The position numbers and the translations under genes were made by a program. Of a stretch of 64,000 nt of DNA, positions 11,204-51,300 are shown one piece after another (positions within the stretch are counted from its first letter, which is position 1; every line of letters starts with the position of its first letter). Under the pieces are notes generated by a model that ran no database searches, was not told the DNA's origin, and worked only from the letters and a program-made list of their open reading frames with translations. This DNA comes from an uncultured bacterium (lineage in GTDB: Bacteria; Patescibacteriota; Minisyncoccia; Phycocordibacterales; CAIRYW01). The stretch is from positions 22,014 to 86,013 of the forward strand of contig CAVYBO010000002.1 in NCBI GenBank assembly GCA_963766885.1, written 5' to 3'.

Positions 11204-11764
11204 TTACAATTCCATGGCGGTGGCCATGAGGTATTGCATATTGCTGACCAGGTTTTCGTGGAACTTGAACCCGGGATCCTCAGGGTGAGTGAACGGACGT
11301 CCGGTTTGAAGACCTGACGGGAAGGTTTTACCTTCCGTTTCCATCCACTCCGCGAAGTCGGCGAGCTTGTCGAACCATTCCTCCGACATGGCGCCGGCGA
11401 ACTGGCCGAGTTCCTTGTTGGTGAGGGTGAACTCACAACCGAGAGCGACCGCCGCTTCCTGCCCGAAGAAGACTTCCCGCGGAAAGATGGCGTCCTGAAC
11501 ACCGCAGTAGCGGATGTCGTAGAACACCGGAGCGGCGCGAAAGGTTGTGAGTTCCCCCGCGTGCTCGATTTGCCCCAGAATGACGATCAAACTGGGGAAA
11601 GGGTTGGTGGAGTTGTAGTCGTAGTTTTCCGCGTCCGTGGGTTCCACGACGCGCCAGATTTGGCCGGACAGAATTTCCGCCGGCTTGGTTTGGTTCTGCG
11701 GCGGCATATCCAGCAAAGGATGGAGCGCCAGAGGAAGGATTTTTTTGAGGTCTGCGATTTTCAT
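11204..11764 (-). CDS. hypothetical protein encoded in a GC-rich (about 58%) patch; likely horizontally acquired
   Basis: 186-aa ORF MKIADLKKILPLALHP...; local GC far above the about 35% flanks, and the overlapping shadow ORFs in other frames are typical of GC-rich DNA; no recognisable family. Confidence 0.45.
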   Translation of the reverse strand: MKIADLKKILPLALHPLLDMPPQNQTKPAEILSGQIWRVVEPTDAENYDYNSTNPFPSLIVILGQIEHAGELTTFRAAPVFYDIRYCGVQDAIFPREVFFGQEAAVALGCEFTLTNKELGQFAGAMSEEWFDKLADFAEWMETEGKTFPSGLQTGRPFTHPEDPGFKFHENLVSNMQYLMATAMEL

Positions 11765-12096: not shown

Positions 12097-12531
12097 ATGT
12101 TAATAGGAGAATACAAACATTCAATAGACGAAAAAAACCGAATGTCGCTGCCAAGCAAATTCCGCAAGGAATTGGGCAAGAAAGTGGTGGCGACATACGG
12201 GCTTGAACAATGTTTGTTTGTCTACGAAATATCGGAATGGAACAGAATCGCTGAGGATATTTCAAAGCTTGGAATGTTAAAAAGCGATACGCGAGAATTT
12301 AACAGATTTATGTTTGGAGGAGCGGTAGAAATTGAGGTTGATGCGCTTGGCAGAATTTTGGTTCCAGAATATCTCAAAAAATATGCGGATCTCAAGGGAA
12401 ATGCCGTGGTCATCGGAGTTCACAAAAGGCTTGAAATCTGGAACGAGAAGAAGTGGGAGGAATACAAGAAAGCGATAGTTTCAAAAGCAGATGGATTAGC
12501 AGAAAAGCTTTCGGAAGCAGGTGCTTTCTAA
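12097..12531 (+). CDS. mraZ: transcriptional regulator MraZ
   Basis: 144 aa; MLIGEYKHSIDEKNRMSLPSKFR, duplicated SpoVT/AbrB-like halves. Confidence 0.9.
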   Translation: MLIGEYKHSIDEKNRMSLPSKFRKELGKKVVATYGLEQCLFVYEISEWNRIAEDISKLGMLKSDTREFNRFMFGGAVEIEVDALGRILVPEYLKKYADLKGNAVVIGVHKRLEIWNEKKWEEYKKAIVSKADGLAEKLSEAGAF

Positions 12532-13444
12532 AGAATTTCAGAGAGAAGTGAACGCACACAAGACAGTTCTTTTACAAGAAACAATTGAAGGTTTGAAGCC
12601 GAAGCTTGGCGGAGTTTATTTAGACGGCACCATAAACGGTGCTGGCGCTTCAGAGCAATTGGCAATCCAAATTGGCAAAGACGGGACAATCGTTGGAATG
12701 GATTTGGATCTTGATGCGCTTGAAAAGGGAAGTGAACGAGTCAAGAAAACAGGAGTCAAATTTTTCGGCATCAATGACAACTTTCGGAATCTGGACAAAG
12801 CTCTCGATTCTCTAGAAATAGAAAAAATTGATGGCGCGATGTTTGACCTTGGATTATCGAGCAACCAGCTTGATTTATCGGGCAGGGGATTCACTTTTCA
12901 AAAGGACGAACCGCTTCTAATGACCTTCAAATCTAATCCAACGGAAAAGGATTTGACTGCATATGACGTAGTGAATAAATTTGAGCAGAAAAATCTAGAA
13001 ACGATTATCAGATACTACGGCGGAGAAAATTTTGCAGGACGCATTGCTCGAGTTATATGCGAAGCAAGAATACAAAAACCGATTGAAACTACTTCTGAAC
13101 TAGCAGAATTGATTTATCAAGCAGTCCCAGCAATTTACAGAAGAGGCAAGATTCATCCAGCCACCAAAACTTTTCAGGCCATCCGAGTTGTGGTGAACGA
13201 CGAGATTGAATCTTTGAAGGAAGGTTTGGAAAAATCACTCGAAAGACTGAATTCTGGAGGAAGAGTTGTGGTGATAAGTTTTGAGAGTTTAACGGACGGA
13301 GTGGCCAAAAGATTTTTTAAAGAGAAAGCCAAAGATAAAAAGATTTTAATAATAACAAAGAAACCGATTGTTCCAACAGAAAGAGAAATTAGCGATAATC
13401 CACGATCAAGAAGTTCCAAATTAAGAATCGCGGAAAAGATTTAA
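12521..13444 (+). CDS. rsmH: 16S rRNA (cytosine1402-N4)-methyltransferase RsmH
   Basis: 307 aa; VLLQETIEGL...YLDGT.NGAG..., follows mraZ. Confidence 0.9.
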   Translation: MLSKEFQREVNAHKTVLLQETIEGLKPKLGGVYLDGTINGAGASEQLAIQIGKDGTIVGMDLDLDALEKGSERVKKTGVKFFGINDNFRNLDKALDSLEIEKIDGAMFDLGLSSNQLDLSGRGFTFQKDEPLLMTFKSNPTEKDLTAYDVVNKFEQKNLETIIRYYGGENFAGRIARVICEARIQKPIETTSELAELIYQAVPAIYRRGKIHPATKTFQAIRVVVNDEIESLKEGLEKSLERLNSGGRVVVISFESLTDGVAKRFFKEKAKDKKILIITKKPIVPTEREISDNPRSRSSKLRIAEKI

Positions 13445-13492
13445 GAGAAATTTAATAAAAAAATTTAAAAATTAACAAAATAAAAAAATACC

Positions 13493-13792
13493 ATGACAAG
13501 CATGCCATCTCAGTACAAATTCAAAAAAACTTTCTGGATGTTTTCCAGTGCGTCTTTTGGCATGATTGTTATTTATGTTTTTCTTGTATTTTTCACTGTT
13601 TCCCATACTCTTTCAAGGGAAAATAGTGAAAAATCAATTCAAAATATCCTTTCAAATATAAGCGAGAAAGAATCCACTTATATGAGCCTTGAGGCTTCTA
13701 TTACGCCAGATCTTGCCACAGCCAAAGGATTTGTAGATGCAAATAACACTATAGTCGTCAGGGCGGGAGCAACTTTGACTATGCGCAATTAA
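13493..13792 (+). CDS. ftsL: FtsL-like cell division membrane protein (by position)
   Basis: 99 aa, single TM, sits between rsmH and ftsI as in dcw clusters. Confidence 0.45.
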   Translation: MTSMPSQYKFKKTFWMFSSASFGMIVIYVFLVFFTVSHTLSRENSEKSIQNILSNISEKESTYMSLEASITPDLATAKGFVDANNTIVVRAGATLTMRN

Positions 13793-13799
13793 TTAAATA

Positions 13800-15497
13800 A
13801 TGAAATTTCTCAACCCAATCAGGCTAATATCGATTTTAATCATATTGGCGGGTTTTATCTTTGTCTTAAAACTTTACGACATACAAATTGTCAAACATAA
13901 TGAATATGTTCAAATCGCCAATAATCAGTACCAAAGACCGCAGGGATTTTTTGATAGAGGAACAATATATTTTGAGGATAAAGACGGCAATAAAATATCG
14001 GCGGCTACAGTAAAATCAGGATATATTCTTGCTATAAATCCAGAACTTATTGTTAATAAGCAAGATGCTTACAATAAACTATCATCGGTTGTAAGTGGTA
14101 TTGATAAGACGGATTTTTTAGACAAAGCCTCAGAGCAAGATACATATGAAGTAATTCAAAAGGAGGTTGATTCTGATACAGGAAAAAAAATACAAGCACT
14201 CAATATTTCAGGAGTAATTCTTGATAGTGACAACTGGAGATTTTACCCTGGAAATTCAACTGCTTCACAGGTGCTCGGCATCGTTGGCTATCAGGGCAAT
14301 GATTTGGCTGGAAGGTATGGTTTGGAAGAAGAATATAACTCTGTTTTGGAAAGGAATCAGAGCGACCTTTATACTAATTTTTTTGTTCAAATATTTTCAA
14401 ATATAAAATCAAGCGTGGACTCTGATAATTCAGAGGGAGATATTGTTACAACAATTGAGCCGAATGTTCAAGCTGCTCTTGAAAATACTCTTCAGAAAAT
14501 TCAAACAACATGGTCTTCCGAAGAAACAGGCGGCATTATAATGAATCCGCAAAACGGAGAAATAATCGCCATGGCTGCGTATCCCAATTTTAACCCCAAT
14601 GATTTCTCAGATGTCAGTTCTGTTGGTGTGTTTAAAAATCCATTAGTTGAAGATGTTAGAGAAATGGGCTCAATAATGAAAGTTGTAACTATGGCTTCTG
14701 GAATTGATGCTGGCCTTGTAACTGCCTCCACAACTTATGATGATGTTGGATATGTGAAAGCGGACGGCAGCACAATTTATAACTTTGACAAGCAAGGAAG
14801 GGGAGTGATTACGATGCAGACTGTACTTGATGATTCGCTCAACACAGGCGCATCGTTTGTAGAGCAAAAACTTGGCAACAAAAGATTTACGGACTATTTT
14901 TTTAAGTTTGGTCTTGGTGAAAAAACCAATATTGATTTGCCGGACGAAGCGCAAGACCTCGTTTCAAATCTTCAAAGCACTAGAGATATTGAGCATATTA
15001 CTGCTTCGTACGGACAGGGAATTGCCCTAACTCCAATTGCCACTGCCCGAGCCCTTGCTGCTGTGGCCAATGGCGGGTATTTGGTCCAGCCTCACGTTGT
15101 CAAAGAAGCCGATCCTATTGAAGGAATTCCTTATTATCCATTTGCCAGCTATAAGCCGGTACAAGTGATTTCAAAATCTGCTTCACAGAAAGTAACGGCA
15201 ATGCTTATAAACGTTGTTGATACAGCTCTGCTTGGGGGGGCAGGAAAGAATCCACACTATACTGTTGCTGCCAAAACTGGTACAGCTCAGATTCCTTCAC
15301 CAAGTGGAGGATATTATTCTGACAGGTATCTTCACTCTTTCATGGGTTATTTTCCTGCTACAAACCCTCAATTTTTAATTTTAATGTATACTGTTTACCC
15401 AAAAACGCAGTTATATGCAGCGTCAACCCTGGCACAGCCGTTTTTGGACTTGAGCCATTTTATTATAAATTATTACTCAATCCCGCCTGACAGATAA
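13800..15497 (+). CDS. ftsI: peptidoglycan D,D-transpeptidase FtsI (PBP3)
   Basis: 565 aa; N-term TM, SxxK (SIMKV), SxN (SLNTGA), KTG (KTGTAQ). Confidence 0.85.
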   Translation: MKFLNPIRLISILIILAGFIFVLKLYDIQIVKHNEYVQIANNQYQRPQGFFDRGTIYFEDKDGNKISAATVKSGYILAINPELIVNKQDAYNKLSSVVSGIDKTDFLDKASEQDTYEVIQKEVDSDTGKKIQALNISGVILDSDNWRFYPGNSTASQVLGIVGYQGNDLAGRYGLEEEYNSVLERNQSDLYTNFFVQIFSNIKSSVDSDNSEGDIVTTIEPNVQAALENTLQKIQTTWSSEETGGIIMNPQNGEIIAMAAYPNFNPNDFSDVSSVGVFKNPLVEDVREMGSIMKVVTMASGIDAGLVTASTTYDDVGYVKADGSTIYNFDKQGRGVITMQTVLDDSLNTGASFVEQKLGNKRFTDYFFKFGLGEKTNIDLPDEAQDLVSNLQSTRDIEHITASYGQGIALTPIATARALAAVANGGYLVQPHVVKEADPIEGIPYYPFASYKPVQVISKSASQKVTAMLINVVDTALLGGAGKNPHYTVAAKTGTAQIPSPSGGYYSDRYLHSFMGYFPATNPQFLILMYTVYPKTQLYAASTLAQPFLDLSHFIINYYSIPPDR

Positions 15498-15503
15498 TAC
15501 AAC

Positions 15504-16796
15504 ATGAAAAATTATTTAAAAAAAATCATTGTTTTTATTCTTACAATCGAGGCTAAGCTTGTCCTAAGGAAATACAAGCCTAAAATTATTGCTGTCACGG
15601 GAAGCGCCGGCAAGACATCCACCAAGGACGCTATTTATACCGCTATTTCTTCATCGCTTCATGTTCGCAAAAGCGCCAAAAGCTACAACAGCGATATAGG
15701 AATTCCTCTGACCATTCTTGGCCTTGAAAATCCTTGGAATAATTATAAAAAATGGCTAACAAATATTCTAAAAGGCGCCATTGTTGCTTTGAAGAAGCAA
15801 AAATATCCAGAATATCTTGTTCTTGAAATCGGCGCAGACAGGCCAGGAGAAATCAAGCGTCTTATGAAATGGATTCACCCCGATATCTCAGTGGTTACGC
15901 TTATAGGCAAAGTGCCAGTGCATGTTGAGTTTTACGATTCCGTTGAGAGTGTTATAAAAGAAAAAAGTGAAATTATAAAAAATCTCAAACCGGATGGTTT
16001 TGCGATTTTGAATGCTGACGATGAGGATGTGCGCGATATGAGGCATTTAACAGGCGCCAAAACGATAACATTCGGCATAAAGAATAAGGCAGATGTTTCT
16101 GTTGTTTTTCCGTCTATTATCTATGATGAATCCGGTGCGCCAATTGGCATGAGCGCCAAGATTGATGTTTCGGGATCGAGTTTTCCTATTATCATAAATG
16201 GTGCGCTTGGTATTCAGCAGATTTATCCTGTGGCCGCGGCTTTTGCTGTAGCTATGGTTAAGAATTTAAATCTTCTGGAAGTTGCCACAGCATTCAAAGA
16301 TCACGAAGTGCCAAAAGGCAGAGTCAAGATTATCAAAGGCATAAAAGATTCAACTATAATTGATGATACTTACAACGCTTCTCCGGCAGCTGTTGAAGAA
16401 GGTTTGAATATTTTAAGCGAAATAAAAACTCACGGCAAAAAAATCGCAATTCTGGGCGATATGCTTGAACTTGGCAGGCATTCATCTTCTGAACACAGAA
16501 GAATCGGCGAGATAGCAGGAAAAATTTGCAATGTTGTTATTGGCGTGGGTATCCGTTCGCGCGAGCTTGCCAATGCCGCGCAAGTGGCAGGAATTTCCAA
16601 GAGTGATGTTTATTTTGTTGATGATTCAATTCAGGCGGGGGAGACCGCGGCCAAGTTGATTGACACTGGAGACGTTGTTTACATCAAAGGCTCGCAAGGA
16701 ATGAGAATGGAAAAAACAGTAGAAAAAATAATGCAGGAAAAACACAAAAAAGAAGAACTTTTGGTGCGACAAGAAAAAGAATGGTTGGAGAGGTAA
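15504..16796 (+). CDS. murF: UDP-N-acetylmuramoyl-tripeptide--D-alanyl-D-alanine ligase MurF
   Basis: 430 aa; IAVTGSAGKTSTKD P-loop, NSDIGIPLTIL, DDTYNASP, GDMLELG motifs. Confidence 0.8.
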   Translation: MKNYLKKIIVFILTIEAKLVLRKYKPKIIAVTGSAGKTSTKDAIYTAISSSLHVRKSAKSYNSDIGIPLTILGLENPWNNYKKWLTNILKGAIVALKKQKYPEYLVLEIGADRPGEIKRLMKWIHPDISVVTLIGKVPVHVEFYDSVESVIKEKSEIIKNLKPDGFAILNADDEDVRDMRHLTGAKTITFGIKNKADVSVVFPSIIYDESGAPIGMSAKIDVSGSSFPIIINGALGIQQIYPVAAAFAVAMVKNLNLLEVATAFKDHEVPKGRVKIIKGIKDSTIIDDTYNASPAAVEEGLNILSEIKTHGKKIAILGDMLELGRHSSSEHRRIGEIAGKICNVVIGVGIRSRELANAAQVAGISKSDVYFVDDSIQAGETAAKLIDTGDVVYIKGSQGMRMEKTVEKIMQEKHKKEELLVRQEKEWLER

Positions 16797-16836
16797 TATA
16801 AGTATAAAAAATAGCAGAAAACGGGAAGTAATCTGC

Positions 16837-17436
16837 TTAACGTCTTCGGAAAACTAGAGCTATTACACCCAAGGCAACGAATACGCAGTACAAAATGCTT
16901 GGCTCAGGCACGCTCATCTGGAGTGCGGGCGTTTGAGTTTCTGCTCCCGCGCTGATTTGCTGTAGAGCCGAAGTGTCTTTTGTGCTTGCAACGCTAACGT
17001 AATCGATCGCCCAAGTGTAGCTACCGGTAACCGTCGGAACGACATCGTCGAGGTTGAAGACAAATTCACGACTGGTGCCCTCTGGAATTACATACCAGAA
17101 TGCATCATCTCCGCTGATTGGAGTGGGAGCAAGCATGTCCGGATCGATGTTTTCTTCAGTGTCCAATGTTGGACTTGCGGCGACGCCGTTGATTGTGAAT
17201 GTGAATCCATCGTCACCGAGCGGAACTGATGCTCTGCGGACGTACTCAGTTTGGGTATCCGCGGAGATATTGATATCGATTCCGAAGTAACCCAATTCCT
17301 CGTAGGTGCTAGAGTACTCTGGTTTTTGCACCTCGTAGGAGGCGCATTCCGTCCAGTTCACGCTTACTTGGGTTGCGTTTGCCGAAGTGATTCCTACCCA
17401 AGAGAGTAGGACCAGTAAAGAATATTTAAAGTTCAT
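16837..17436 (-). CDS. PEP-CTERM-type secreted protein (signal peptide plus C-terminal VPEP-TM-RRR sorting signal), GC-rich
   Basis: Start at MNFKYSLLVLLSWVGITSANA (the ORF track extends further upstream); C-terminus ...VPEPSILYCVFVALGVIALVFRRR; local GC about 50% versus about 35% genome. Confidence 0.6.
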   Translation of the reverse strand: MNFKYSLLVLLSWVGITSANATQVSVNWTECASYEVQKPEYSSTYEELGYFGIDINISADTQTEYVRRASVPLGDDGFTFTINGVAASPTLDTEENIDPDMLAPTPISGDDAFWYVIPEGTSREFVFNLDDVVPTVTGSYTWAIDYVSVASTKDTSALQQISAGAETQTPALQMSVPEPSILYCVFVALGVIALVFRRR

Positions 17437-17470
17437 AATCAGAAAAACACTAACATAAATACTTAATTTT

Positions 17471-18523
17471 GTAAAGATACACGTATAGGTCCAATAGCTT
17501 GGCACCACTTTGGTGGGTTAACATCAAAGGTATGCCATACACAACAAATAAGAATATGCCGAAGATTAGGCAACAAGCAGCTGATTTAGTCAGAAGAGGT
17601 TGGAGCAGAAGAAAGGTTGGTCGATATTTGGGATTTCACCATACAGCGATATCTGAATGGGTCAGAATTGCAAAGAAAATAGGGTATCATCCCATACTAA
17701 CAAGATCATCAAGACCGAAACATCATCCCCAACAATTGGATGAAAGAATCATTAGAAAAATCGTGGAGAAAAGATTAGAGCATGGTCGATATGCGGAAGC
17801 GGTACACAGGGAGCTTCAAAACGATGGTGTGAAAGTTTCTTTGTCATCAGTCAAAAGAACTCTCGACCGGAAGAGACTCATCAAAAAGAGAAGTCCGTAC
17901 AAACGATTCCATCCTCACCAAGATCGCCCATATCCCTTGAAATCAGGCGATTTGGTGCAAATTGATACTATTCATCGGATGGTTGATGGAAAGAAAAGAC
18001 TGTACGTGTTTGTGGTCATTGATGTATTTTCAAGATGGACATACGCAAAAGCATTTGAACGGATGAATGCAAGAACAAGTATTGATTTTGTCAGAGCAGC
18101 GCAAAGAGAATCGTCCTTCCATTTTGATATGTTGCAGTCAGACCATGGACCAGAGTTTGGTAAGTGGTTTGTCTCAAATATCAAAAAGAGCCACAGGTAT
18201 ACCAGAATTGGCAAACCCAATGACAATGCTCATATCGAAAGATTCAACAGGACTCTACAGGAAGAATGCCTGGACAAAGTTCCTAACGATATTCGAATTA
18301 TCAATTGTGCTTTGAAGAAATATTTGAGATATTACAATTTTGAGCGAGTGCACGGAGGAATCAATTATTCAATTCCCATGCAGGTGGTGTGAAGCTATTG
18401 ATTAGATTACGGTATTCAAAATCTTTCGTACCAAGTTAATTGAATGGCAAAGATTTGGAGAGATGCTTTCTAAACAAGATTAGACGCTTGCAATATTTCT
18501 ATACTTTTGTACCATATTAAACA
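17471..18523 (+). mobile_element. IS481-family insertion sequence (putative ends)
   Basis: Transposase ORF flanked by imperfect inverted ends beginning TGT (17471 tgtaaagatacacgtatagg versus reverse complement of 18498-18523 tgtttaatatggtacaaaagtataga); ends are approximate. Confidence 0.4.
17499..18392 (+). CDS. IS481-family (DDE/rve integrase core) transposase
   Basis: N-terminal HTH (GWSRRKVGRYLGFHHTAISEWV), DDE triad (QIDTI, SDHGPEF, NAHIERFNRTL); the track start is TTG, internal ATGs at 17532/17556 are more likely starts. Confidence 0.8.
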   Translation: MAPLWWVNIKGMPYTTNKNMPKIRQQAADLVRRGWSRRKVGRYLGFHHTAISEWVRIAKKIGYHPILTRSSRPKHHPQQLDERIIRKIVEKRLEHGRYAEAVHRELQNDGVKVSLSSVKRTLDRKRLIKKRSPYKRFHPHQDRPYPLKSGDLVQIDTIHRMVDGKKRLYVFVVIDVFSRWTYAKAFERMNARTSIDFVRAAQRESSFHFDMLQSDHGPEFGKWFVSNIKKSHRYTRIGKPNDNAHIERFNRTLQEECLDKVPNDIRIINCALKKYLRYYNFERVHGGINYSIPMQVV

Positions 18524-18539
18524 GAGAGTACATTTAGAC

Positions 18540-18860
18540 CGAAAGCCAAGGCGGCGCACGCCGTCGAATGACGAGAGCGTAAACAAACGCAGACCAATAG
18601 CTAATGGTGGCAAGTTGCCATAGAAACGGATGGGGGGACTTGTTCCCGCTTATCATGTACCGAAGCTTTGGACGACAAGCTCTGCAGCTGTGAGACGTAT
18701 TCTCACATGACGTGGAGTGATTACTCAGGGATACTTAGTGCATCAATAGGTAGTTACGTTGGGGATTTCCGTCTCCTAGAGGCGGTCGCGTGGTAGGTCT
18801 TTTGTTTCTTTCTCTTTGAACCCTCGACGTTTCGGCGTCGGGGGTTCTACTTTTTATATC
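18540..18860 (+). ncRNA. candidate structured ncRNA (GC-rich, ORF-free, ends in an intrinsic terminator); identity unresolved
   Basis: About 320 nt at about 52% GC with no credible ORF, many local hairpins, terminal ccctcgacg-tttcgg-cgtcggggg hairpin plus T-run at 18819-18855. Confidence 0.3.
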
Positions 18861-18873
18861 TGTTTCCAAGTCT

Positions 18874-18963
18874 ATAAAATATCCCATTAGGTTGCGCCAA
18901 AAAACTATTAAAAAATATGAATAAAAAAAGCTGTGACCCAAGTGGTCGCAAATTGGAACCGAG
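18874..18963. repeat. direct repeat copy A: tRNA-Glu downstream flank plus decayed tRNA 3'-half (att-like)
   Basis: aaaatatcccattaggttgcgccaaaaaactattaaaaaatatgaataaaaaaagctgtgaccc... aligns at about 75% with 19364-19455. Confidence 0.5.
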
Positions 18964-19045
18964 TCTTGGAGAATATAAAGGTTTTTCAGGAATTTGTATA
19001 AAAAATTCGCCCATTTCTGAGCGATGATACTTCTTGGTGTTTATA

Positions 19046-19300
19046 TCACCTTGTCCGATGTCTATAGTGCGTACTCCTGTAGGCTACTGTTACCACCCAG
19101 AGAACCAAAGCCGTGATCAACACAACGATGGGGATAGTGAGTACAGGATTAACCTTGAGGAAGTAACAGACGGTACATACCAGAGCCCAGATCACCAGGC
19201 CAAACGGCGTAGCGAACAAGATGAAACAACTGACACCTATGAAGAACCCAATGAGCACAAGTCTCATTGCTGCCTTGTAGGAAGGATTTTGAATGCTCAT
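19046..19300 (-). CDS. small hydrophobic protein (2 TM), GC-elevated, between the att-like repeats
   Basis: 84-aa ORF with two clear TM helices; it overlaps a + strand ORF of poorer composition. Confidence 0.3.
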   Translation of the reverse strand: MSIQNPSYKAAMRLVLIGFFIGVSCFILFATPFGLVIWALVCTVCYFLKVNPVLTIPIVVLITALVLWVVTVAYRSTHYRHRTR

Positions 19301-19363
19301 AAATTCTGACCAAATTTAATCATTATTTTAGGAAAAGTCAAATTATATAGATTGATTCCAATT

Positions 19364-19455
19364 TTATAAAAAATCCCATTAGGTTGCTTCAAAAAACCTT
19401 TGAAAAATATGGTTAGAAAAATCTATGACCCTACCGGGAATTGAACCCGGATTTA
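19364..19455. repeat. direct repeat copy B (abuts and overlaps the 3' half of tRNA-Glu)
   Basis: ttataaaaaatcccattaggttgcttcaaaaaacctttgaaaaatatggttagaaaaatctatgaccc followed by the intact tRNA. Confidence 0.5.
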
Positions 19456-19497
19456 AGCCTTGAGAAGGCTCCGTCCTAACCGTTAGACGATAGGGCC
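19426..19497 (-). tRNA. tRNA-Glu (anticodon CUC)
   Basis: Manual cloverleaf: acceptor GGCCCTA/TAGGGTC, D-stem GTCT/GGAC, anticodon stem GAGCC/GGCTT with loop TTCTCAA, T-arm CCGGG-TTCAATT-CCCGG, 72 nt, no encoded CCA. Confidence 0.85.
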
Positions 19498-19609
19498 AAG
19501 TCAAACAATTTTACACAAAATCAAAGAAAAATCTATTTTAGATGAAACTTTTTGGTATGTGATACGATATAAAAAAGAGGTCTTTTTATTAATTTAATTT
19601 TAAAAATAT

Positions 19610-20006
19610 ATGAATAATAACAAAGTTGTGCATTTTGAAATCGTGGCCGTGGATCCTCTGCGAGCCACTGATTTCTATACAAAGGTTTTTGGTTGGGAAA
19701 TTAAAAAGTGGGAAGAAGGAGAAATGGATTATTGGATGATTTAACACTACTCCGCAAAATACTCCAGGAGCAATCAACGGCGGTTTGCGAAAGGAAATGG
19801 GAACAGATCACAAAGAAATGACTAAATCTGTAAATGGCTTTGTGTCCATTGTGGCTGTGGATTCTATAGATGATATATTAGGAAAAATAGAAAAATTCGG
19901 CGGAAAAATTATGCAGCCAAAAATGAATGTTCCAAAAGTTGGCTGGCTTGCGTATTGTATGGACACAGAGGGAAATATGTTTGGGGTATTGCAGCCAGAG
20001 ATGTAG
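19610..20006 (+). pseudogene. glyoxalase/bleomycin-resistance (VOC) family protein interrupted by a 1-nt frameshift near 19739-19744
   Basis: N-half [31 protein letters not shown]...DYWMI* (frame 2) and C-half ...TTPQNTPGAINGGLRKEMG...VDSIDDILGKIEKFGGKI...GWLAYCMDTEGNMFGVLQ (frame 0); removing one T in gaTTTaac joins them. Confidence 0.55.
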
Positions 20007-20156
20007 TTATTTGTATATTTTTGGGAAACTATGAATTGAGGCGAGGATGTCTTTGGTTTTTTGGTATTGCTCGCCTAAATAAAAAGTCCAGAAGGGGATT
20101 ATAAAAATAAATAATATTGCCGCAATTAGTCTGGAATACCATGTGACCTTGTTCCA

Positions 20157-21308
20157 TTGGATTTTTCTCATAAAGAAATTATATCAAAGTTTCAAATAAT
20201 ATATACTATTGCTATGGCAATTTTTAGAAAGGAAGCTTTAAAGCATTTTTATGAAAAATACGAGCGGCATATTGGTTCGCTGACAATTATTATCGGATTC
20301 GTTTTTGATAATGTTGCCATCCGCCAGTCTGTAATTAACACCCAAACCCAAGTATTTTTGACTTATATTATTCTAGCGGGACTTTCAATTCTTATTTTGC
20401 ATTGGATAGAGGGTAAAGAGGGGAGAAAAGAAAATTACGCAACACTGCATTTTTGGATTTTTCTTTTGATGCAGTTTAGTATTGGAAGCTTGTTTAGCAT
20501 GTTCTTTGTTTTTTATTCTCGCGGTGTATCGATTGCAACTTCGTGGCCGTTTCTGCTTTTGCTTTTTGGAAATCTTGTCGGCAATGAATTATTTAAAAAG
20601 TATTATTCGCAATTAAGCTTGCAGGTTTCGCTTTATTTTATTGGTATTTTTTCTTTCTTTATTTATTTCATGCCGACAGTACTTCATGAAATGAGCGTAA
20701 GAGTTTTTATTTACAGCGGCATCACTAGTCTACTCACAGTTTTTGTTTTTATGCGTCTTCTGGAATTAATTTCAATCCAAAGAGTCAGGAAGTGGCGACC
20801 CAGGATTGCAATCGGTGTTTTGTTTGTATATTTGTTGATAAACGTTTTTTATTTTACAAACATCATTCCGCCTGTACCGCTTGTGATGAAAGAGGGTGGT
20901 GTCTATCATAATTTTTCTGTAAATAGCGAAGGGGATTATGTGGTTGAAGCGGAACAAAAATCATGGAGCAGTGTTTTTGATGAATATCCAATATATCATC
21001 GTGCTCCGAATGAAATAGTATATGTGGTTACCTCTGTTTTTGCTCCGGCACAATTGGATACAACTTTGATTCATGATTGGCAATATTTTGATCCTGTAAC
21101 AAAAAAGTGGCAGAGTGAAAGCAAAGTAAAAGTGCCTATTGTTGGCGGCCGGGAAGGCGGTTACAGATTTTATTCACTGAAACAAAGTATTACCTCTGGA
21201 AAATGGAGAGTGGATGTGGAGACAACTCAAGGACAAATTGTAGGACAAATAAAATTTGAAATTGTTGACAGCACTTCAACTCCGAGTTTGTCTAAAGTGG
21301 TGTATTAA
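20157..21308 (+). CDS. polytopic membrane protein with a C-terminal beta-rich extracytoplasmic domain (DUF2914-like?)
   Basis: 383 aa; about 8 TM helices then a 130-aa soluble domain (GKWRVDVETTQGQIVGQIKFEIV). Confidence 0.5.
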   Translation: MDFSHKEIISKFQIIYTIAMAIFRKEALKHFYEKYERHIGSLTIIIGFVFDNVAIRQSVINTQTQVFLTYIILAGLSILILHWIEGKEGRKENYATLHFWIFLLMQFSIGSLFSMFFVFYSRGVSIATSWPFLLLLFGNLVGNELFKKYYSQLSLQVSLYFIGIFSFFIYFMPTVLHEMSVRVFIYSGITSLLTVFVFMRLLELISIQRVRKWRPRIAIGVLFVYLLINVFYFTNIIPPVPLVMKEGGVYHNFSVNSEGDYVVEAEQKSWSSVFDEYPIYHRAPNEIVYVVTSVFAPAQLDTTLIHDWQYFDPVTKKWQSESKVKVPIVGGREGGYRFYSLKQSITSGKWRVDVETTQGQIVGQIKFEIVDSTSTPSLSKVVY

Positions 21309-21310
21309 AA

Positions 21311-21520
21311 TTAATGATAGTCCTGTTTATTATTCAATATGAAATAAGCTTGCTTTAATGCGTCTTCAAGTTCAATTGTTCCATTTGTAACATTTTCCTT
21401 CAATCTATTAAGTGTCGGAATTTCATGATCATTAAATCCTATAAGAGATATTTGTTGAGTAATCATTCCAATTTCTGCCAAAACCCCTTCTTTAGTTAGT
21501 TCTATTTTTATTTCTTCCAT
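21311..21520 (-). CDS. small hypothetical protein
   Basis: 69-aa ORF downstream of and co-oriented with the 21581-21925 ORF. Confidence 0.3.
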   Translation of the reverse strand: MEEIKIELTKEGVLAEIGMITQQISLIGFNDHEIPTLNRLKENVTNGTIELEDALKQAYFILNNKQDYH

Positions 21521-21580
21521 GATGTTAATTATATCAAATAAATTTTATAAAAAATTGAACCGTTGCTTTTCAACACGGTT

Positions 21581-21925
21581 CTAGTAATCATCCATATGGC
21601 CGGCAAGCCTAAAACTTCTTTGAAGCATAGCTTCGTGAGCGAGAGCGTAACCTCGTTGACGCGCTTTTTCGATCCTTGAGATTTCCTCCAAGAAATCCTT
21701 TTCATCTTGCATAACCTTACGTCTCTTTGAGATCTTGAATTGGGCGCGCCGATTCAGTTCCTTTGCAATGTCTCTAGCATTCACACCGTGTTCAGTGGCT
21801 ACCGTGTGTATTGCCAGTCTCATCTGGATTCCTTGATCGTTTACAAGGTCTCTGGCCAAGTTGGCAAGACTGCCTATTCTCGTGTTAATAAAGGGCATTG
21901 TTTTCTCCTGCCCATAATTATGCAA
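21581..21925 (-). CDS. hypothetical protein with a possible HTH
   Basis: 114 aa (likely start MPFINTR at 21898); HGVNARDIAKELNRRAQ helix-turn-helix-like segment. Confidence 0.35.
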   Translation of the reverse strand: MHNYGQEKTMPFINTRIGSLANLARDLVNDQGIQMRLAIHTVATEHGVNARDIAKELNRRAQFKISKRRKVMQDEKDFLEEISRIEKARQRGYALAHEAMLQRSFRLAGHMDDY

Positions 21926-21948
21926 TGAATATAGATTTTATTCAATAG

Positions 21949-22395
21949 CTAAAACATCCCATCCACGACGGCTTTGACATCTCCACCGTCCGCTTTGCCT
22001 TTGAGTTCTTTCATCAAGAGGCCGATAAGCATATTAGCTTTGGATTTGTCTGTAATCCCTAGCTCTGATTTTTTAGCTTCGGCGATTTTTTTGATTTCCT
22101 CAACACCCATCATTTGGGGAAGTAGAGGTTCAAGTATCGAAAGTTCCTTTTTTTCATTTTCTGCAAGCTCCAGGCGGCCGCCTTTTTGGAATTGTTCTAT
22201 TGAATCCTTGCGTTGTTTGGAAAGACGTCTAATAACAGCGATGCAATCTTCGTCTGGAAGCGTGTCTTGAGGAGTTTTGCCTTTGGCAACAAGTTCGTTG
22301 GTAAGCGCAGTGGAAATACCTCTGTAGACGTTTAAAGCGACTTCATCTCGAGCTTTCATAGATTCTTTAATTTTTTCTCTAATTTCATTTTGCAT
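21949..22395 (-). CDS. yqeY: GatB/YqeY domain protein
   Basis: 148 aa; MQNEIREKIKESMKARDEVALNVYRGISTAL typical YqeY. Confidence 0.8.
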   Translation of the reverse strand: MQNEIREKIKESMKARDEVALNVYRGISTALTNELVAKGKTPQDTLPDEDCIAVIRRLSKQRKDSIEQFQKGGRLELAENEKKELSILEPLLPQMMGVEEIKKIAEAKKSELGITDKSKANMLIGLLMKELKGKADGGDVKAVVDGMF

Positions 22396-26652: not shown

Positions 26653-26727
26653 GTAAAACTATTCTATCAGTCTCAAAATAATAAAAAAGCTTGAAAAAGG
26701 GGAATAGGTGTGTGTAATGTGGGGAGA

Positions 26728-26790
26728 ACAAATTTTTATTAAAAACAGGCCACCATCGCCTCTGTGGGATGGTGGCCTTCTGTTGTTTTT
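26728..26790. terminator. bidirectional intrinsic terminator hairpin
   Basis: ggccaccatc-gcctctgtgg-gatggtggcc (10-bp stem) with T-runs on both strands. Confidence 0.5.
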
Positions 26791-27190
26791 GGTTCGGTTC
26801 GAGCCCTGGTTTTTGGTCGCCTTGTGGAAACCAATCAGCAGGGTAGTTCGCCGTGCTAAAGAACCTTTCTATCACTTCTCGCGTCTGTTTGGTGATTAGC
26901 CAACAACACGTGTGCGCAATTTGTTTATTCGGTTTGCGATTACCGCCGGATTCACGTCTGCGATTGCTCGCATTTGTTATTCTGACACTTGCCCTAACGC
27001 AAGTTCCTCTCAGCCGAGTGTGCTTTTACATTTATATCCCTGCCCGCGTCGGTTTATCCAGGCCTCCAGCCTCCCCGGAGGGTTTAAGAGTAAGAGCGGT
27101 TTTGGGCGGCAGCTGCCTGATTCCGATGTCAGACTCGGTCTATCAGATCTGCTTGGCTGCCGGGCCGATGGGATCACCCCATCATAATTA
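26790..27190 (-). ncRNA. candidate structured ncRNA: GC-rich (about 52%) ORF-free region bounded by a terminator; strand and identity unresolved
   Basis: No protein-like ORF (the ORFs here are Cys/Arg/Ser-rich shadows); GC-rich helices; weak similarity to RNase P CR-II/III and CR-V on the + strand and to the 4.5S motif GCAGCCAAGGCAGAU on the - strand; none conclusive. Confidence 0.3.
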
Positions 27191-27340
27191 ATCATTTTTT
27201 TGATGTAGGTGCCGAAGTATGCAAGTTTGCCTGCAGACACTAGCTAGTTTGCATATACTCCTCGACGGAAAATAAAATACTATATTTAATTATTTTGTCA
27301 ATAGTTATGAAAGTTTGAATCCAGTTTATAATTCTCGACT

Positions 27341-29545: not shown

Positions 29546-30262
29546 ATGAATAAAATTGACGAAAGGCTGATAATCGGTCTGGATGTCCCAACTGTGGGGA
29601 AAGCACTCCACATCATTGACCAACTGGGCGACACGCCTTGGGGGTACAAGATCGGACCTGAAATGGTGCTGACGCAAGAACTGGAAACTCTTACTCGCGC
29701 AATTAAAAACGTGCGAGCGCGGATTTTCCTGGATAACAAGTGGGCCAATACTCCTGATGTGACGGCGGCGTGCGTTAAGCGCGCCGGCGACTGGGGTTTT
29801 GACATGTGCAACATTATGCTCGATGGTACTGGGCCGGAGATGATTGAGAAGTCTGCCGAATCTGCCGCTTCTTATCCCGAGATGATGCTTCTTGGAGTCA
29901 CTGTGCTGACAACGCGTGATGATAACTCACTCAAGGCAACGGGGGTTTCTGATGGCCGCGAGGCACAAGTGATTCGGCTTGCGGGGCTTGCAAAGAACTC
30001 GGGCATTAATGTTCTTGTTGCAAGCTCAAACGAAATCGTTCCTCTGAGGGGGGAGAAGTTCGGCAATTTCTTCGGTCTTGTTGTACCGGGCACTCGTTCG
30101 GCTGGCGCAGATGCGAAGGATCAAAAGAACATTACTTTGCCTGCGGTGGCGCTTCAGCGTGGAGCAAATTGGCTTGTAATTGCAAGCCAGGTTGTAAAAG
30201 CCGAAAACCCCAAGCAGGCTTACGACGATCTTGTGGCTGAAATTCAAGAAGCCTGTCTCTAA
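29546..30262 (+). CDS. pyrF: orotidine-5'-phosphate decarboxylase, GC-rich
   Basis: 238 aa; LIIGLDVP..., KIGPEM, DNKWANTP motifs of OMP decarboxylase; GC about 52%. Confidence 0.75.
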   Translation: MNKIDERLIIGLDVPTVGKALHIIDQLGDTPWGYKIGPEMVLTQELETLTRAIKNVRARIFLDNKWANTPDVTAACVKRAGDWGFDMCNIMLDGTGPEMIEKSAESAASYPEMMLLGVTVLTTRDDNSLKATGVSDGREAQVIRLAGLAKNSGINVLVASSNEIVPLRGEKFGNFFGLVVPGTRSAGADAKDQKNITLPAVALQRGANWLVIASQVVKAENPKQAYDDLVAEIQEACL

Positions 30263-30280
30263 ATTTCGTACAGCTTTTAA

Positions 30281-30310
30281 GCACCCAAACCTGGGTGCAA
30301 TTTTTATTTT
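30281..30310 (+). terminator. intrinsic terminator after pyrF
   Basis: gcacccaaacctgggtgc hairpin plus aatttttatttt. Confidence 0.6.
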
Positions 30311-30336
30311 ACATATTTTAAATTTGTGTTAGTTTA

Positions 30337-31035
30337 ATGGCAGGGAATAAGAGGGCAGAACATTTCAGAAAACAATCAAAAGAAGAAATCCTAATGCACA
30401 ATAATCAGAAAGGGTGGATTGAAAATTTCACCCAAATGGGCGCTTTTTGGCGTCATGACGGAAATCCGAAGCGGCCTCACGCGCTTCTTACAAAAGGCGG
30501 TCACAGCAACGGCTTCTTCAATGGCAATGTTGTTGTGGAGAATCCGGTCTGTCTGGATTCTGTGGCTTACGACATCACAAGGAAATGTGACTCATCCGTG
30601 GTCATCGATCGCGTTGTTGGTCCCGCAATGGGCGCCATCAAACTTGCTCATGATCTGGGCAGGAACCTGAAGGCCCTCGGCGGCTTTATGGTCAAAAAAG
30701 TCAGCGACGACAAAGGGGTTCTCTGGGTGCCGGATCGATTTCATCCGCTTCCTGCGGAGCGAATCGCGCCTTGCGAAGATACAATTACTACCGGCGGAAG
30801 CATTCTGGGGATGATTGAAGCCCTCGAAAGATTGGGGGCCGAAGTGCTTCCTTTCATCTTCGCCATTGTCAATCGCTCCGGTTTGACCGAAGTTAATGGC
30901 CGCGAGATCATCGCGCTCATCAACTGCCCGATGGACAACTGGAAGCCAGACGAATATCCGCTCTGCGCCGAAGGTTCACAGGCCATCCGGCCTAAGGAAG
31001 ACGACAACTGGTCGCTTCTGACCGCAGAGTACTAG
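30337..31035 (+). CDS. pyrE: type I phosphoribosyltransferase, probably orotate phosphoribosyltransferase (PyrE), GC-rich
   Basis: PRPP-binding motif LWVPDRF...CEDTITTGGSI; adjacent to pyrF; GC about 52%. Confidence 0.55.
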   Translation: MAGNKRAEHFRKQSKEEILMHNNQKGWIENFTQMGAFWRHDGNPKRPHALLTKGGHSNGFFNGNVVVENPVCLDSVAYDITRKCDSSVVIDRVVGPAMGAIKLAHDLGRNLKALGGFMVKKVSDDKGVLWVPDRFHPLPAERIAPCEDTITTGGSILGMIEALERLGAEVLPFIFAIVNRSGLTEVNGREIIALINCPMDNWKPDEYPLCAEGSQAIRPKEDDNWSLLTAEY

Positions 31036-35217: not shown

Positions 35218-36585
35218 CTATTTAATCAAATCAATAGCCAGTTTTACACGGTTTAAGGTTTCTTGTTTACCAAAGAATTCACTCAAGACAAAAGGATCTG
35301 GAGATTTTTCTTTGCCGGATAGGGCATATCTGTAAGCCCAAAGCACGATTCCCCTACCAGCCTCTGTTGCAAAATCCCAAACCGAAGATTTTATTTTTTC
35401 TACGCTAAAATCATTTTCATCAATACCAGAAATAATTTCTAAAGTTTTTTCTAAATATTTTTTTACATCAGATAAATTAGCTACTGAGCCTTTACGGAGT
35501 TTTTCTGGACAGAGTAAGTTGTCCTTATCAATTAAAGGCTTTTTAAAATAAAAATCCAACTCCCCTGTTTCATATAATTTATTTATATCTCCAAATTTAT
35601 CTATCCGTTCTTTTATTATCGGCACAAGTTTCGAAATATTTGGATTATTTTTCAATTCTTCAGGAAGCCGGAATTTTAGTTGTTTCATAATTTCATTATC
35701 ACTAAGTCTTTTTATATATTCTCGATTTAACCAATTTAATTTTTTAATATTGAATATAGCCCCACTTTTTTGCACTCTTGATAGATCAAAAGTTTCGATC
35801 AATTCATTTATACTCCAAATCTCCTTGTCTGTGCCGGGATTCCATCCAATGAGCGGCAGGCAGTTTATAACGGCATCAGCTAGATATCCGTCATCACGAC
35901 AATTTTTAATTGAAATTGCTCCGTTTCTTTTTGATAACTTTGACTTGTCTGGTGAAAGAACAAGTGGCACATGAGCGTATATTGGGGTAGGTGCGCTTAT
36001 GGCTTCTTGAATCAAAATATGCCGAGGTGTATTTGAAATATGATCTTCCCCTCTTATTATGTGTGTAATACCCATATCAAAATCGTCCACAACCACAGCC
36101 AGGTGAAATACAGGCTCCTCAATACTTCTGGCGATTATAAAGTCGCCAAGATCGCTTGTGTCCATTTCGATTGTACCTCTAATCAAATCTTCAAAACTTA
36201 TTTTTTTGTTTGGATTCTTGAATCTTATAACACTGTCTCTTTGCCCTGGTTCTTTCGGGATTTCTTTTGATACATAAGCTTTATTTTCAGCAATCAGTTT
36301 TTTGATAATTTCCTGATGTCTTTTTAAGTTTTGGCTTTGATAGACAATATTGTTAAAATTATCAGGAATAATTTTCATCCACTCCAAGCTCTCTATAATA
36401 TCTTTTGCGTATTCATCTTTGGAGCGGGCTTTGTCCGTATCTTCAATACGAAGCAAAAATTCTCCGCCACTTTGTCTAGCTATAAGATAGCAAAAAAGGG
36501 CTGTTCTGTAATTTCCAAGATGCAGAAATCCTGTTGGACTTGGTGCGAATCTGGTAATAACTTTTTCTGTATTACTGTCGCTCAT
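35218..36585 (-). CDS. gltX: glutamyl-tRNA synthetase
   Basis: 455 aa; HLGN (HIGH), KLSKRNGA (KMSKS). Confidence 0.9.
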   Translation of the reverse strand: MSDSNTEKVITRFAPSPTGFLHLGNYRTALFCYLIARQSGGEFLLRIEDTDKARSKDEYAKDIIESLEWMKIIPDNFNNIVYQSQNLKRHQEIIKKLIAENKAYVSKEIPKEPGQRDSVIRFKNPNKKISFEDLIRGTIEMDTSDLGDFIIARSIEEPVFHLAVVVDDFDMGITHIIRGEDHISNTPRHILIQEAISAPTPIYAHVPLVLSPDKSKLSKRNGAISIKNCRDDGYLADAVINCLPLIGWNPGTDKEIWSINELIETFDLSRVQKSGAIFNIKKLNWLNREYIKRLSDNEIMKQLKFRLPEELKNNPNISKLVPIIKERIDKFGDINKLYETGELDFYFKKPLIDKDNLLCPEKLRKGSVANLSDVKKYLEKTLEIISGIDENDFSVEKIKSSVWDFATEAGRGIVLWAYRYALSGKEKSPDPFVLSEFFGKQETLNRVKLAIDLIK

Positions 36586-37702
36586 GTTTTAGGGCGGTAT
36601 TAATAATTTGCTCTGCAATAACATAAGCCGCATCTGTCTTAGCAAAGGCAAGCGCTGCTTCGCGCATTTTTTTTAACTTTTCTGGATTGGATATAATTTT
36701 TTTGATCTGATCTGTTAATATTTCTGGCGTCAGGTTGTTTTCTTCAATTACCAAAGCTGCTCCTGAGCGGGCATAGTTGTAAGAATTTTTTCGTTGGTGG
36801 TCACCGTTTGAATCTGTTATGGGAATAATAATTGATGGCACTCCCCACGCCGCTATTTCAAAAATCATTGACCCGCCTCGCGATATTACTAAATCGGCAA
36901 TTCCTGCAGACATTCTCTCTGCCAAGGAGTTCATATAATCAAAAGGATGATATCTTTTTTCCAAGGGATTATTTTGCAATATTACAGAGGCTGTGTTTTT
37001 AATATCTTCAAAATTCGCTTTCCCTGTTTGATGGATGATTTGGTAATCATTAAGAAGTTGTGGCAGACATTCTAAAATTTCATCGTTGATTCGTTTAGAC
37101 CCGATTGAGCCGCCAAAAATCAGGATAACTGGGACATTAGATTCAAGGTTCAGATATTCTGTTGCCCCGTCTCTGATGGGGTTGAGTATTTCTTGCCTTA
37201 TAGGATTTCCTGTCCACGCAATTTTTGATTTTTCAAAAAATTCTCCTGCCTCTGGAAATGATAAAGCGATTTTCTTAGCAAATTTGGCAGCATACAGATT
37301 AGCCCTGCCTGGTATTGAATCGCTTTCGTGAACGATTATTGGTATGCCAAGAATTTTTCCAGCTGCCACAACAGGTAAGCTCATCAATCCTCCTTTGCTG
37401 AAAATAACATCCGGATATATTGAATATACTTTAAAAAAAGTTGATATAAATCCGAACGCAGTTTTGATTATGTCAAAGACGTTTTGTATTGAGAAATACC
37501 TTCTAATTTTACCAGCGCTGATTTTTTCAAATTCAATTTCATCATTAAAAAGTAGTGCCCTATCATACGGATCCGACGCAAGATAAAAAAGCTTTGGCTG
37601 TATGATCTTTCTCTTTATAGCTGTGTCTCTGACCGCCTCGGCAACCGCAATGATTGGATAAAAATGTCCGCCGCTTCCACCGCCGCAAAATATTATTTTC
37701 AT
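36572..37702 (-). CDS. murG: UDP-GlcNAc:undecaprenyl-PP-MurNAc-pentapeptide GlcNAc transferase MurG
   Basis: 376 aa; MKIIFCGGGSGGHFYP glycine loop, GT28 family. Confidence 0.85.
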   Translation of the reverse strand: MKIIFCGGGSGGHFYPIIAVAEAVRDTAIKRKIIQPKLFYLASDPYDRALLFNDEIEFEKISAGKIRRYFSIQNVFDIIKTAFGFISTFFKVYSIYPDVIFSKGGLMSLPVVAAGKILGIPIIVHESDSIPGRANLYAAKFAKKIALSFPEAGEFFEKSKIAWTGNPIRQEILNPIRDGATEYLNLESNVPVILIFGGSIGSKRINDEILECLPQLLNDYQIIHQTGKANFEDIKNTASVILQNNPLEKRYHPFDYMNSLAERMSAGIADLVISRGGSMIFEIAAWGVPSIIIPITDSNGDHQRKNSYNYARSGAALVIEENNLTPEILTDQIKKIISNPEKLKKMREAALAFAKTDAAYVIAEQIINTALKHERQ

Positions 37703-48189: not shown

Positions 48190-48191
48190 AT

Positions 48192-50834: not shown

Positions 50835-50896
50835 AATGAATTACTAATTACTTGACTGAAATATAATTATATCACACCAGAAAACATTTTTTGGCT

Positions 50897-51286: not shown

Positions 51287-51300
51287 TACATTATTATAGC

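Follow-up and report, generated by a model that had tools for sequence, protein, structure and literature searches.

The Interval Following murF and Its Contents

The DNA considered here (hereinafter the window) is a 64-kb stretch from an uncultured bacterium with a GC content of 38.5%, whose best protein matches are named Paceibacterota/Parcubacteria, placing it in the candidate phyla radiation (CPR). On its plus strand, positions 12097–16796 encode mraZ, rsmH, a small ftsL-like open reading frame (ORF), ftsI and, as the last gene, murF, i.e., one part of the division and cell wall (dcw) cluster. Between murF and a second block of genes beginning with yqeY and rmuC lies a slot of 5.15 kb (16797–21948) containing a PEP-CTERM gene, an insertion sequence (IS), a GC-rich segment, an ORF of 84 amino acids (aa), a minus-strand tRNA-Glu, a frameshifted glyoxalase gene, a DUF2914 gene and two small ORFs. 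An earlier note on this DNA had read the part up to the tRNA as a foreign island at a breakpoint of the dcw cluster. Based on comparisons with relatives, we propose with moderate confidence that the region is instead the left part of a hypervariable, tRNA-Glu-centered slot situated between two conserved blocks in a Paceibacterota lineage. The features on which the discussion draws are as follows:

15504–16796, plus strand: murF, with Pfam Mur_ligase_M and Mur_ligase_C domains and homologs named murF; left boundary of the variable slot
16837–17436, minus strand: PEP-CTERM gene (199 aa), convergent with murF; Pfam PF07589 at 21.0 bits versus a cut-off of 20.7
17482–18411, plus strand: IS481-like IS of 930 bp with ends CGTA...TACG; left inverted repeat 17482–17508, right inverted repeat 18384–18411
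17532–18392 (or from a TTG at 17499), plus strand: intact transposase ORF with Pfam rve and rve_3 and helix-turn-helix (HTH) domains
18412–18519: AT-rich spacer (about 120 nt) preceding the GC-rich segment
18520–18812, plus strand: GC-rich (0.50) ORF-free segment with stops in all six frames
18818–18857, plus strand: intrinsic-terminator-like hairpin (13 bp, eight of them G-C pairs) with a T-run
18861–18972, minus strand: direct-repeat copy 1, comprising a degenerate 3′ part of tRNA-Glu (~18933–18972) and ~72 nt matching the downstream flank of the tRNA
19024–19007, minus strand: terminator-like hairpin of the 84-aa ORF
19046–19300, minus strand: 84-aa hydrophobic ORF with ~3 predicted transmembrane helices; GC at third codon positions (GC3) 0.576, z = 3.7
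19370–19342, minus strand: promoter-like site of the 84-aa ORF, within repeat copy 2
19353–19431, minus strand: direct-repeat copy 2, comprising the final 7 nt of tRNA-Glu and 72 nt downstream
19425–19498, minus strand: intact tRNA-Glu(CUC), found by ARAGORN and by Rfam at 62.3 bits
19610–20006, plus strand: glyoxalase/bleomycin-resistance family gene (Pfam, N-terminal fragment), 75% identical by blastn to the gene in relative L007, with two tblastn frames
20157–21308, plus strand: DUF2914 protein gene without a counterpart in the slots of relatives
21311–21520 and 21581–21925, both minus strand: small ORFs without a counterpart in the slots of relatives
21949–22395, minus strand: yqeY, first gene of the conserved right-hand block
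36572–39872, minus strand: mraY-ftsW-murG, the other half of the dcw cluster, with Pfam Glycos_transf_4, FTSW_RODA_SPOVE, and Glyco_transf_28 plus Glyco_tran_28_C, respectively

A Hypervariable Slot Between Two Conserved Blocks

Relatives of the locus were obtained by protein search and contig look-ups, which yielded eight contigs representing six lineages at 75–77% murF identity together with L026 (62%) and L024/25 (60%); a murF scan of GTDB genomes returned distant Mur ligases only. All relatives examined have the order lysyl-tRNA synthetase–small ORFs–mraZ...murF, and the mraZ-rsmH-ftsL-ftsI-murF block is kept throughout. On the right, the window and the relatives share yqeY (minus strand), rmuC (plus), recR (minus), dnaB (minus), an NTP-transferase gene and cysS (minus), a block that continues in all relatives with long enough contigs except L024, where murF is followed by a uvrB-uvrA-uvrC-ddl run. 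In contrast to these flanks, the gene content between murF and yqeY-rmuC is different in every relative, and the length of the slot ranges from ~2.5 to 5.4 kb where complete:

L007-9 (2.5 kb): tRNA-Glu (plus) 94 nt 3′ of murF, an intact glyoxalase gene and four small ORFs
L019/20 (5.4 kb): a 147-aa ORF, a PEP-CTERM homolog (minus), a PAP2 gene, a 203-aa ORF, tRNA-Glu (plus), an NDK gene and others
P0005 contig (3.9 kb; known from its gene table only): a DUF1295 gene and others
L026: a glutaredoxin gene, others, tRNA-Glu (minus), a small unannotated membrane ORF and a pilin-like ORF
L024: a 200-aa ORF, tRNA-Glu(UUC) (minus), then uvrBAC in place of yqeY-rmuC

By blastn and tblastn, the slot of the window has the tRNA and the glyoxalase gene alone in common with that of L007, and the tRNA and the PEP-CTERM gene alone in common with that of L019/20. 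The insert of the window is missing from L005, L007-9, L022, L024 and L026, its PEP-CTERM gene alone being shared, with L019/20. Moving rightward from the tRNA, similarity to a relative first appears at the glyoxalase gene. This gene is broken into two frames around 19700–19745, while its 129-aa ortholog is intact in L007-9; either it is a pseudogene with a frameshift, or the sequence is in error at this point. As the identical arrangement occurs in none of the relatives, the notion of a hotspot in the earlier note survives this comparison.

The Split of the dcw Cluster Is Ancestral

The earlier note had correctly observed that murF is not followed by mraY. The genes mraY (38796–39872), ftsW (37699–38796) and murG (36572–37702) are instead located 20 kb off on the strand opposite to murF, between scpA-scpB upstream and gltX downstream. 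Within this run (mraY-ftsW-murG with scpA-scpB, 36572–40438, minus strand), the stop of scpB touches the start of mraY at 39869/39872. On paper, one inversion of ~16.8–39.9 kb would rejoin murF and mraY, yet the relatives indicate that the split is old. None of the eight has mraY 3′ of murF, at murF identities down to 60%; the separation of the two genes is therefore ancestral and predates the divergence of these lineages. Given also the collinearity of the right-hand block, the insert is not the cause of the supposed dcw breakpoint, and this part of the earlier proposal is not supported.

tRNA-Glu and the Direct Repeats

The tRNA scan could be extended across the entire slot in five lineages, and all five have a tRNA-Glu there, in either orientation. 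As judged by blastn and ARAGORN, the tRNA of the window is oriented opposite to those of L007-9 and L019/20 and in the same way as those of L024 and L026; between the window and L007, its orientation with respect to the glyoxalase gene is reversed. Depending on the relative, the anticodon at the locus is CUC or UUC.

The two direct repeats described earlier, one of them overlapping the tRNA, are real: 18861–18939 and 19353–19431 align without gaps over 79 nt at 82% identity, and a gapped alignment carries the repeat ~33 nt further into the T-arm and the acceptor 3′ strand of the tRNA, for a total of ~110 nt. A repeat search covering the whole 64 kb finds this to be the longest pair by far, the next being 39 nt at 74%. 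The decayed tRNA 3′ half previously assigned to copy 1 can be seen by alignment with the real tRNA and its flank but is not detectable on its own, with no tRNA match by Rfam at E ≤ 10. The repeats (18861–18972 and 19353–19460) enclose only the 84-aa ORF, about 0.4 kb, and not the 2.7 kb once attributed to the island. The conserved core of the repeat has zero matches in viral contigs in an exact-word scan.

Short duplications of a tRNA 3′ end recurring at one tRNA are the usual scars of integrase-mediated insertion. In L007, the last 16 nt of its own tRNA-Glu are repeated 158 nt downstream, and in L024 the tRNA-Glu end is repeated (14 of 16 nt) 164 nt downstream; each of these repeats agrees with the T-stem sequence of its own genome. 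Thus, 3′-end duplications in three lineages, together with the variability of the slot, support the idea of a hotspot. At both loci (L007 11388–11620 and L024 11986–12223), the piece between the tRNA-Glu and the repeat includes GGAGTCGAA, an inverted T-arm-like motif. These structures could be what is left of miniature elements bounded by att sites, or they could reflect inversion of the tRNA.

A Clade-Wide IS481-like Element

The ends of the IS were set by DNA alignment with independent copies (L010-L018, including L018 and L015; 75% DNA identity). This comparison gives CGTA at 17482 and TACG at 18411, which replace the TGT inverted ends suggested previously; the inverted repeats are ~27 nt long and imperfect. 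With regard to the attribution of the transposase to the IS481 family, the protein has an rve DDE domain and NCBIfam IS481 is its best match (161 bits, E = 3.9e-47, covering positions 4–283 of the 284 in the profile), with IS3 second at 91 bits, but the score lies below the curated cut-off of 224. As in the IS481 family, a single HTH plus rve DDE transposase ORF fills nearly the whole ~0.93-kb element between the inverted repeats, and the sister copy in L018 is bounded by a 6-bp TATATT target duplication. Differing from the family, the window copy scores under the cut-off and has no target-site duplication, its left flank being GATACA and its right flank GTATTC. Because of the sub-threshold score, we take the element, on its sequence, to be a divergent CPR-specific IS481-like branch.

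Over 6700 homologs of the transposase were recovered; among the matches listed, identities are 72–84%, those with names are from Paceibacterota/Parcubacteria, and most are on ~1-kb contigs as expected of a repeated element. With this clade-wide distribution and a host-like GC3 (z = 0.6), the IS is, by these sequence measures, native to Paceibacterota rather than foreign. In light of the absent target-site duplication, it probably took part in a later deletion or recombination. The window has no second copy that could have served as an inversion partner. Located 45 nt from the PEP-CTERM start codon on its upstream side, the element cuts this gene off from its former upstream DNA.

A PEP-CTERM Protein in a CPR Bacterium

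The presence of a GC-rich PEP-CTERM gene directly after murF is borne out by the Pfam score listed above, by weak matches to NCBIfam PEP-CTERM families and by its composition: it has a GC of 0.495 and a GC3 of 0.52 (z = 2.8) against core-gene means of 0.389 and 0.343, respectively. Likewise, the GC and codon profile finds the 84-aa ORF atypical, as opposed to the host-like IS. The ATG at 17436 is probably the true start, and the N-terminus read from the translation resembles a signal peptide. Among 1.84 billion representatives, the protein has five distant homologs; the C-terminal VPEP motif, transmembrane helix and RRR tail are invariant in all five family members compared, while the remainder is ~30% identical. 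One of the five homologs (P0243/P0247, 34–37% identical) is found just 3′ of murF on the minus strand of the L019/L020 contigs, i.e., in the same slot, and it too is GC-elevated, with a GC of 0.44 versus 0.34 for its locus and a GC3 of 0.44 versus ~0.2 for core genes. Hence, the family appears to belong to this slot in the clade, where it would evolve fast while retaining a non-host composition.

An AlphaFold2 model of the protein (pLDDT 75) is a beta-sandwich, and a fold search with this model gives generic beta-sandwich (Ig-like or ApaG-like) matches only, with template-modeling scores of ~0.3. We therefore describe the product as a predicted secreted beta-sandwich protein with a putative C-terminal sorting or anchor signal. 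The PEP-CTERM/exosortase protein-sorting system was reportedly described by Haft et al. in 2006. The window protein resembles the substrates of this system in its N-terminal signal peptide and in its C-terminal VPEP, hydrophobic helix and arginine cluster. It differs in having a Paceibacterota host, in belonging to a tiny family (6 of the 1.84 billion representatives) and in the lack of an exosortase among the scanned ORFs of the 64-kb window, which are also the scope of the recombinase and phage-protein searches below. To our knowledge, CPR bacteria are not a group noted for outer membranes or exosortases, and a literature search found no paper linking PEP-CTERM or exosortase to them. If genuine, the VPEP-helix-RRR tail would imply exosortase-type surface sorting in bacteria thought to be without an outer membrane; for now, a sorting signal of this kind in a CPR protein seems a modest curiosity.

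The GC-Rich Segment and the 84-aa ORF

For the segment to the right of the IS and its spacer, the earlier description as GC-rich, without ORFs and closed by a terminator is accurate as to composition, six-frame stops and hairpin, but the label of structured RNA is not upheld. With the terminator included, the folding z-score is about -3 on both strands; without it, the values are -1.68 on the plus strand (14 of 200 shuffles being equally good) and -1.95 on the minus strand, and the hairpin thus supplies most of the signal. Rfam gives no match to the segment when run over the window at gathering thresholds, and at E ≤ 10 over 18380–19060 nothing except terminator look-alikes. Fragments of its frames have no Pfam match. 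Homologs were not found in the relatives, in viral contigs or among phages and plasmids: blastn searches of the last two yielded no useful match, and two 22–24-mers had zero matches in an exact-word scan of viral contigs.

Several identities for the segment were considered and set aside: a decayed gene, as it has neither a Pfam match nor a tblastn fragment match to the window or the fetched loci; a part of the IS, as other copies stop at the same TACG with unrelated right flanks; and a known RNA, as the Rfam search is blank. A match from the single metagenome scan (L023 1665–1687), an exact 23 nt in an enolase-superfamily gene on a contig of 58% GC, is attributed to chance; the corresponding peptide VAIETDGG reads in frame in the window too, but the likeness ends there and Pfam gives no support. 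Most simply, the segment is a non-coding remnant of acquired DNA that has retained its terminator; less probably, it is a candidate small-RNA gene.

A second GC-rich (~0.50) gap of ~690 nt is seen at 26653–27340 between dnaB (minus) and the NTP-transferase gene (plus), without a convincing ORF. It has no Rfam match at E ≤ 1 and a fold z of about -3 on both strands with 20 shuffles only. It is unlike 18412–18860 and also unlike the relatives, which carry a 137-bp gap or a 112-aa ORF at that position. The idea that 18520–18857 might be a lineage-specific structured RNA carried by tRNA-Glu-targeting CPR elements, with the 26653–27340 gap possibly another such case, strikes us as a long shot.

The small, GC-elevated membrane ORF mentioned in the earlier note corresponds to the 84-aa ORF, which has no family in Pfam, NCBIfam or PHROGs and no viral relative. 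A phage origin of the cargo was accordingly rejected, the scanned ORFs having no PHROG matches. In L026, an unannotated 58-aa hydrophobic ORF (13590–13760, minus) is found directly downstream of a minus-strand tRNA-Glu in a layout like that of the 84-aa ORF, with no obvious sequence similarity between the two.

A Proposed History of the Slot

The region is, in our assessment, an ordinary, eroded tRNA-linked islet with a native IS, assembled over multiple events rather than as one foreign island. We posit that DNA enters the slot repeatedly, for the most part by integrating site-specifically at the tRNA-Glu 3′ end, and that integration leaves partial duplications of this end, as in the ~110 nt at 82% identity seen here and the 14–16 nt in L007 and L024. 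The ~110-nt repeat would then be an old scar around a mini-cassette, namely the 84-aa ORF together with the promoter-like and terminator-like sites that belong to it. The 72-nt extension past the tRNA suggests that the incoming DNA had a homologous tRNA flank, as might be the case if it came from a related strain; alternatively, part of the locus may have been duplicated. Subsequently, the entered DNA would have eroded and the integrase would have been lost, while the resident IS and local inversion of the segment carrying the tRNA would have rearranged the slot. The IS would have landed 45 nt in front of the PEP-CTERM start and later probably brought about a deletion or recombination; its right-hand neighbors, the spacer and the GC-rich segment, may not originally have adjoined the PEP-CTERM gene.

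Four observations weigh against this scenario. No tyrosine or serine recombinase is present in the scanned window ORFs, where the rve DDE transposase is the only recombinase-type gene, and the case for integration at the tRNA is hence built on its scars only. The repeat continues 72 nt beyond the tRNA, unlike a simple attL/attR pair unless the incoming DNA held a homologous tRNA flank. There is no third copy of the tRNA end (TGACCC core) toward murF, leaving the murF-side end of the insert unmarked. Finally, in L019/L020 variable genes are found on the 5′ side of the tRNA as well.

Alternative Explanations

The reading closest to the earlier note, that a single, recently acquired foreign island at tRNA-Glu split murF from mraY, would account for the adjacency of the tRNA, the repeat with a tRNA 3′ part, the GC-elevated cargo, the IS and the lack of the insert at this position in the closest relatives. 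We nonetheless consider it unlikely. The dcw part is largely refuted by the murF/mraY split common to all relatives down to 60% murF identity; moreover, no integrase is encoded in the scanned window ORFs, the repeats bracket ~0.4 kb instead of 2.7 kb, their identity of just 82% means that they are old, the IS appears native and has host GC, and L019/L020 carry the PEP-CTERM gene at the corresponding position. What stands of that note is a variable tRNA-linked hotspot; what falls is its unity as one foreign island. Another origin for the repeat, in which tRNA-Glu was locally duplicated along with its downstream flank (e.g., a tandem pair of which one decayed), would require no mobile element and leave the rest to intergenic drift. 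The 72 nt of non-tRNA flank included in the repeat fit this view, as does an ancestral pair of tRNAs in light of the CUC or UUC anticodons among the relatives. However, copy 1 has a recognizable tRNA 3′ part only, its 5′ half showing no similarity and no match to the tRNA model, the sequence outside the repeat units is unrelated, and two relatives independently have short 3′-end-only repeats typical of att scars. We regard this alternative as doubtful, and continue to favor the repeatedly invaded tRNA-Glu slot.

Two further possibilities concern the GC-rich pieces. If 18520–18857 were a genuine plus-strand structured non-coding RNA gene with its own terminator, carried as cargo of the slot, one could explain its GC of 0.50 in a genome of 0.385, the absence of an ORF in six frames, the strong plus-strand terminator, a minimum free energy on the plus strand 15 kcal/mol below that of the minus strand and a weak promoter-like TTGCAA(19)CATATT upstream, read directly from the sequence. 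Yet, as detailed above, folding is not significant once the terminator is removed (a z-score of only -1.7, with 14 of 200 shuffles folding equally well), there is no Rfam family at E ≤ 10, and no homolog with which to assess covariation was found in relatives, viral contigs, plasmids, phages or the single metagenome scan. Since at least five other patches of the window have a similar GC, this property alone is not distinctive. Thus, an RNA gene here is improbable. Still far less credible are assembly or binning chimeras from other organisms, a notion prompted by composition jumps of ~10–12 GC points within a few hundred bases: native genes flank the pieces on both sides within a contig of 596 kb, each piece would require two chimeric joins, and the GC-elevated PEP-CTERM homolog occupies this slot in a relative that was assembled twice independently, as L019 (an NCBI metagenome-assembled genome, MAG) and L020 (an ENA assembly).

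Other Observations in the Window

Another variable slot of the window, bounded by the Lys/Asn-tRNA synthetase gene and mraZ, is occupied by a 186-aa ORF (11204–11764, minus) with a GC of 0.565 and a GC3 of 0.727 (z = 6.1) and no match in Pfam, NCBIfam or PHROG; relatives hold different small ORFs there. The genes for an orotidine monophosphate decarboxylase and a phosphoribosyltransferase (29546–31035, plus) have a GC of 0.51–0.52 and a GC3 of 0.52–0.58, the highest among core-like genes, and may be horizontally acquired pyrimidine genes. A run of genes at 45956–53091 (minus) codes for a nitroreductase-like protein, a ThiF-like protein, an aminotransferase, a 516-aa protein without a Pfam match, a HIT protein and an ABC exporter. 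This run, which is adjoined by a seven-transmembrane histidine kinase (44279–45952), resembles a peptide-modification and export cluster.

Significance and Comparison with Known Systems

These comparisons correct an attractive account: the split of the cell-division cluster is an old trait of the lineage and not the work of the insert. In its place, they describe a flexible slot in an ultra-small CPR genome, delimited by synteny, apparently anchored on tRNA-Glu and remodeled by a clade-wide IS481-like element. This should be useful for the annotation of Paceibacterota MAGs and for understanding how streamlined genomes still exchange genes for surface proteins. Two leads may be of wider interest: the PEP-CTERM tag on proteins of a CPR bacterium, and the unexplained GC-rich stretches of non-coding DNA.

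Both tRNA-linked islets and IS481-family elements are textbook entities. In the canonical tRNA-linked genomic island, integration occurs at the 3′ end of the tRNA and leaves attL/attR repeats of its 3′ part. The present locus agrees with such islands in being on the 3′ side of the tRNA, in having a direct repeat with the tRNA 3′ part and a mobility gene (in the IS), in the atypical GC3 of its cargo and in a content that varies among relatives. It departs from them in the absence of an integrase from the scanned window ORFs, in a repeat that brackets ~0.4 kb and runs 72 nt past the tRNA, in the differing age and origin of the pieces in the slot and in that, in some relatives, the region 5′ of the tRNA varies as well.

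In a broader context, the Patescibacteria have been reported to possess small, streamlined CPR genomes with genomic islands and frequent gene transfer, mostly among Patescibacteria themselves (PMC12455944). That survey applied composition-based island callers to MAGs, whereas the slot in the window is defined by synteny across eight relatives and by its tRNA-Glu.

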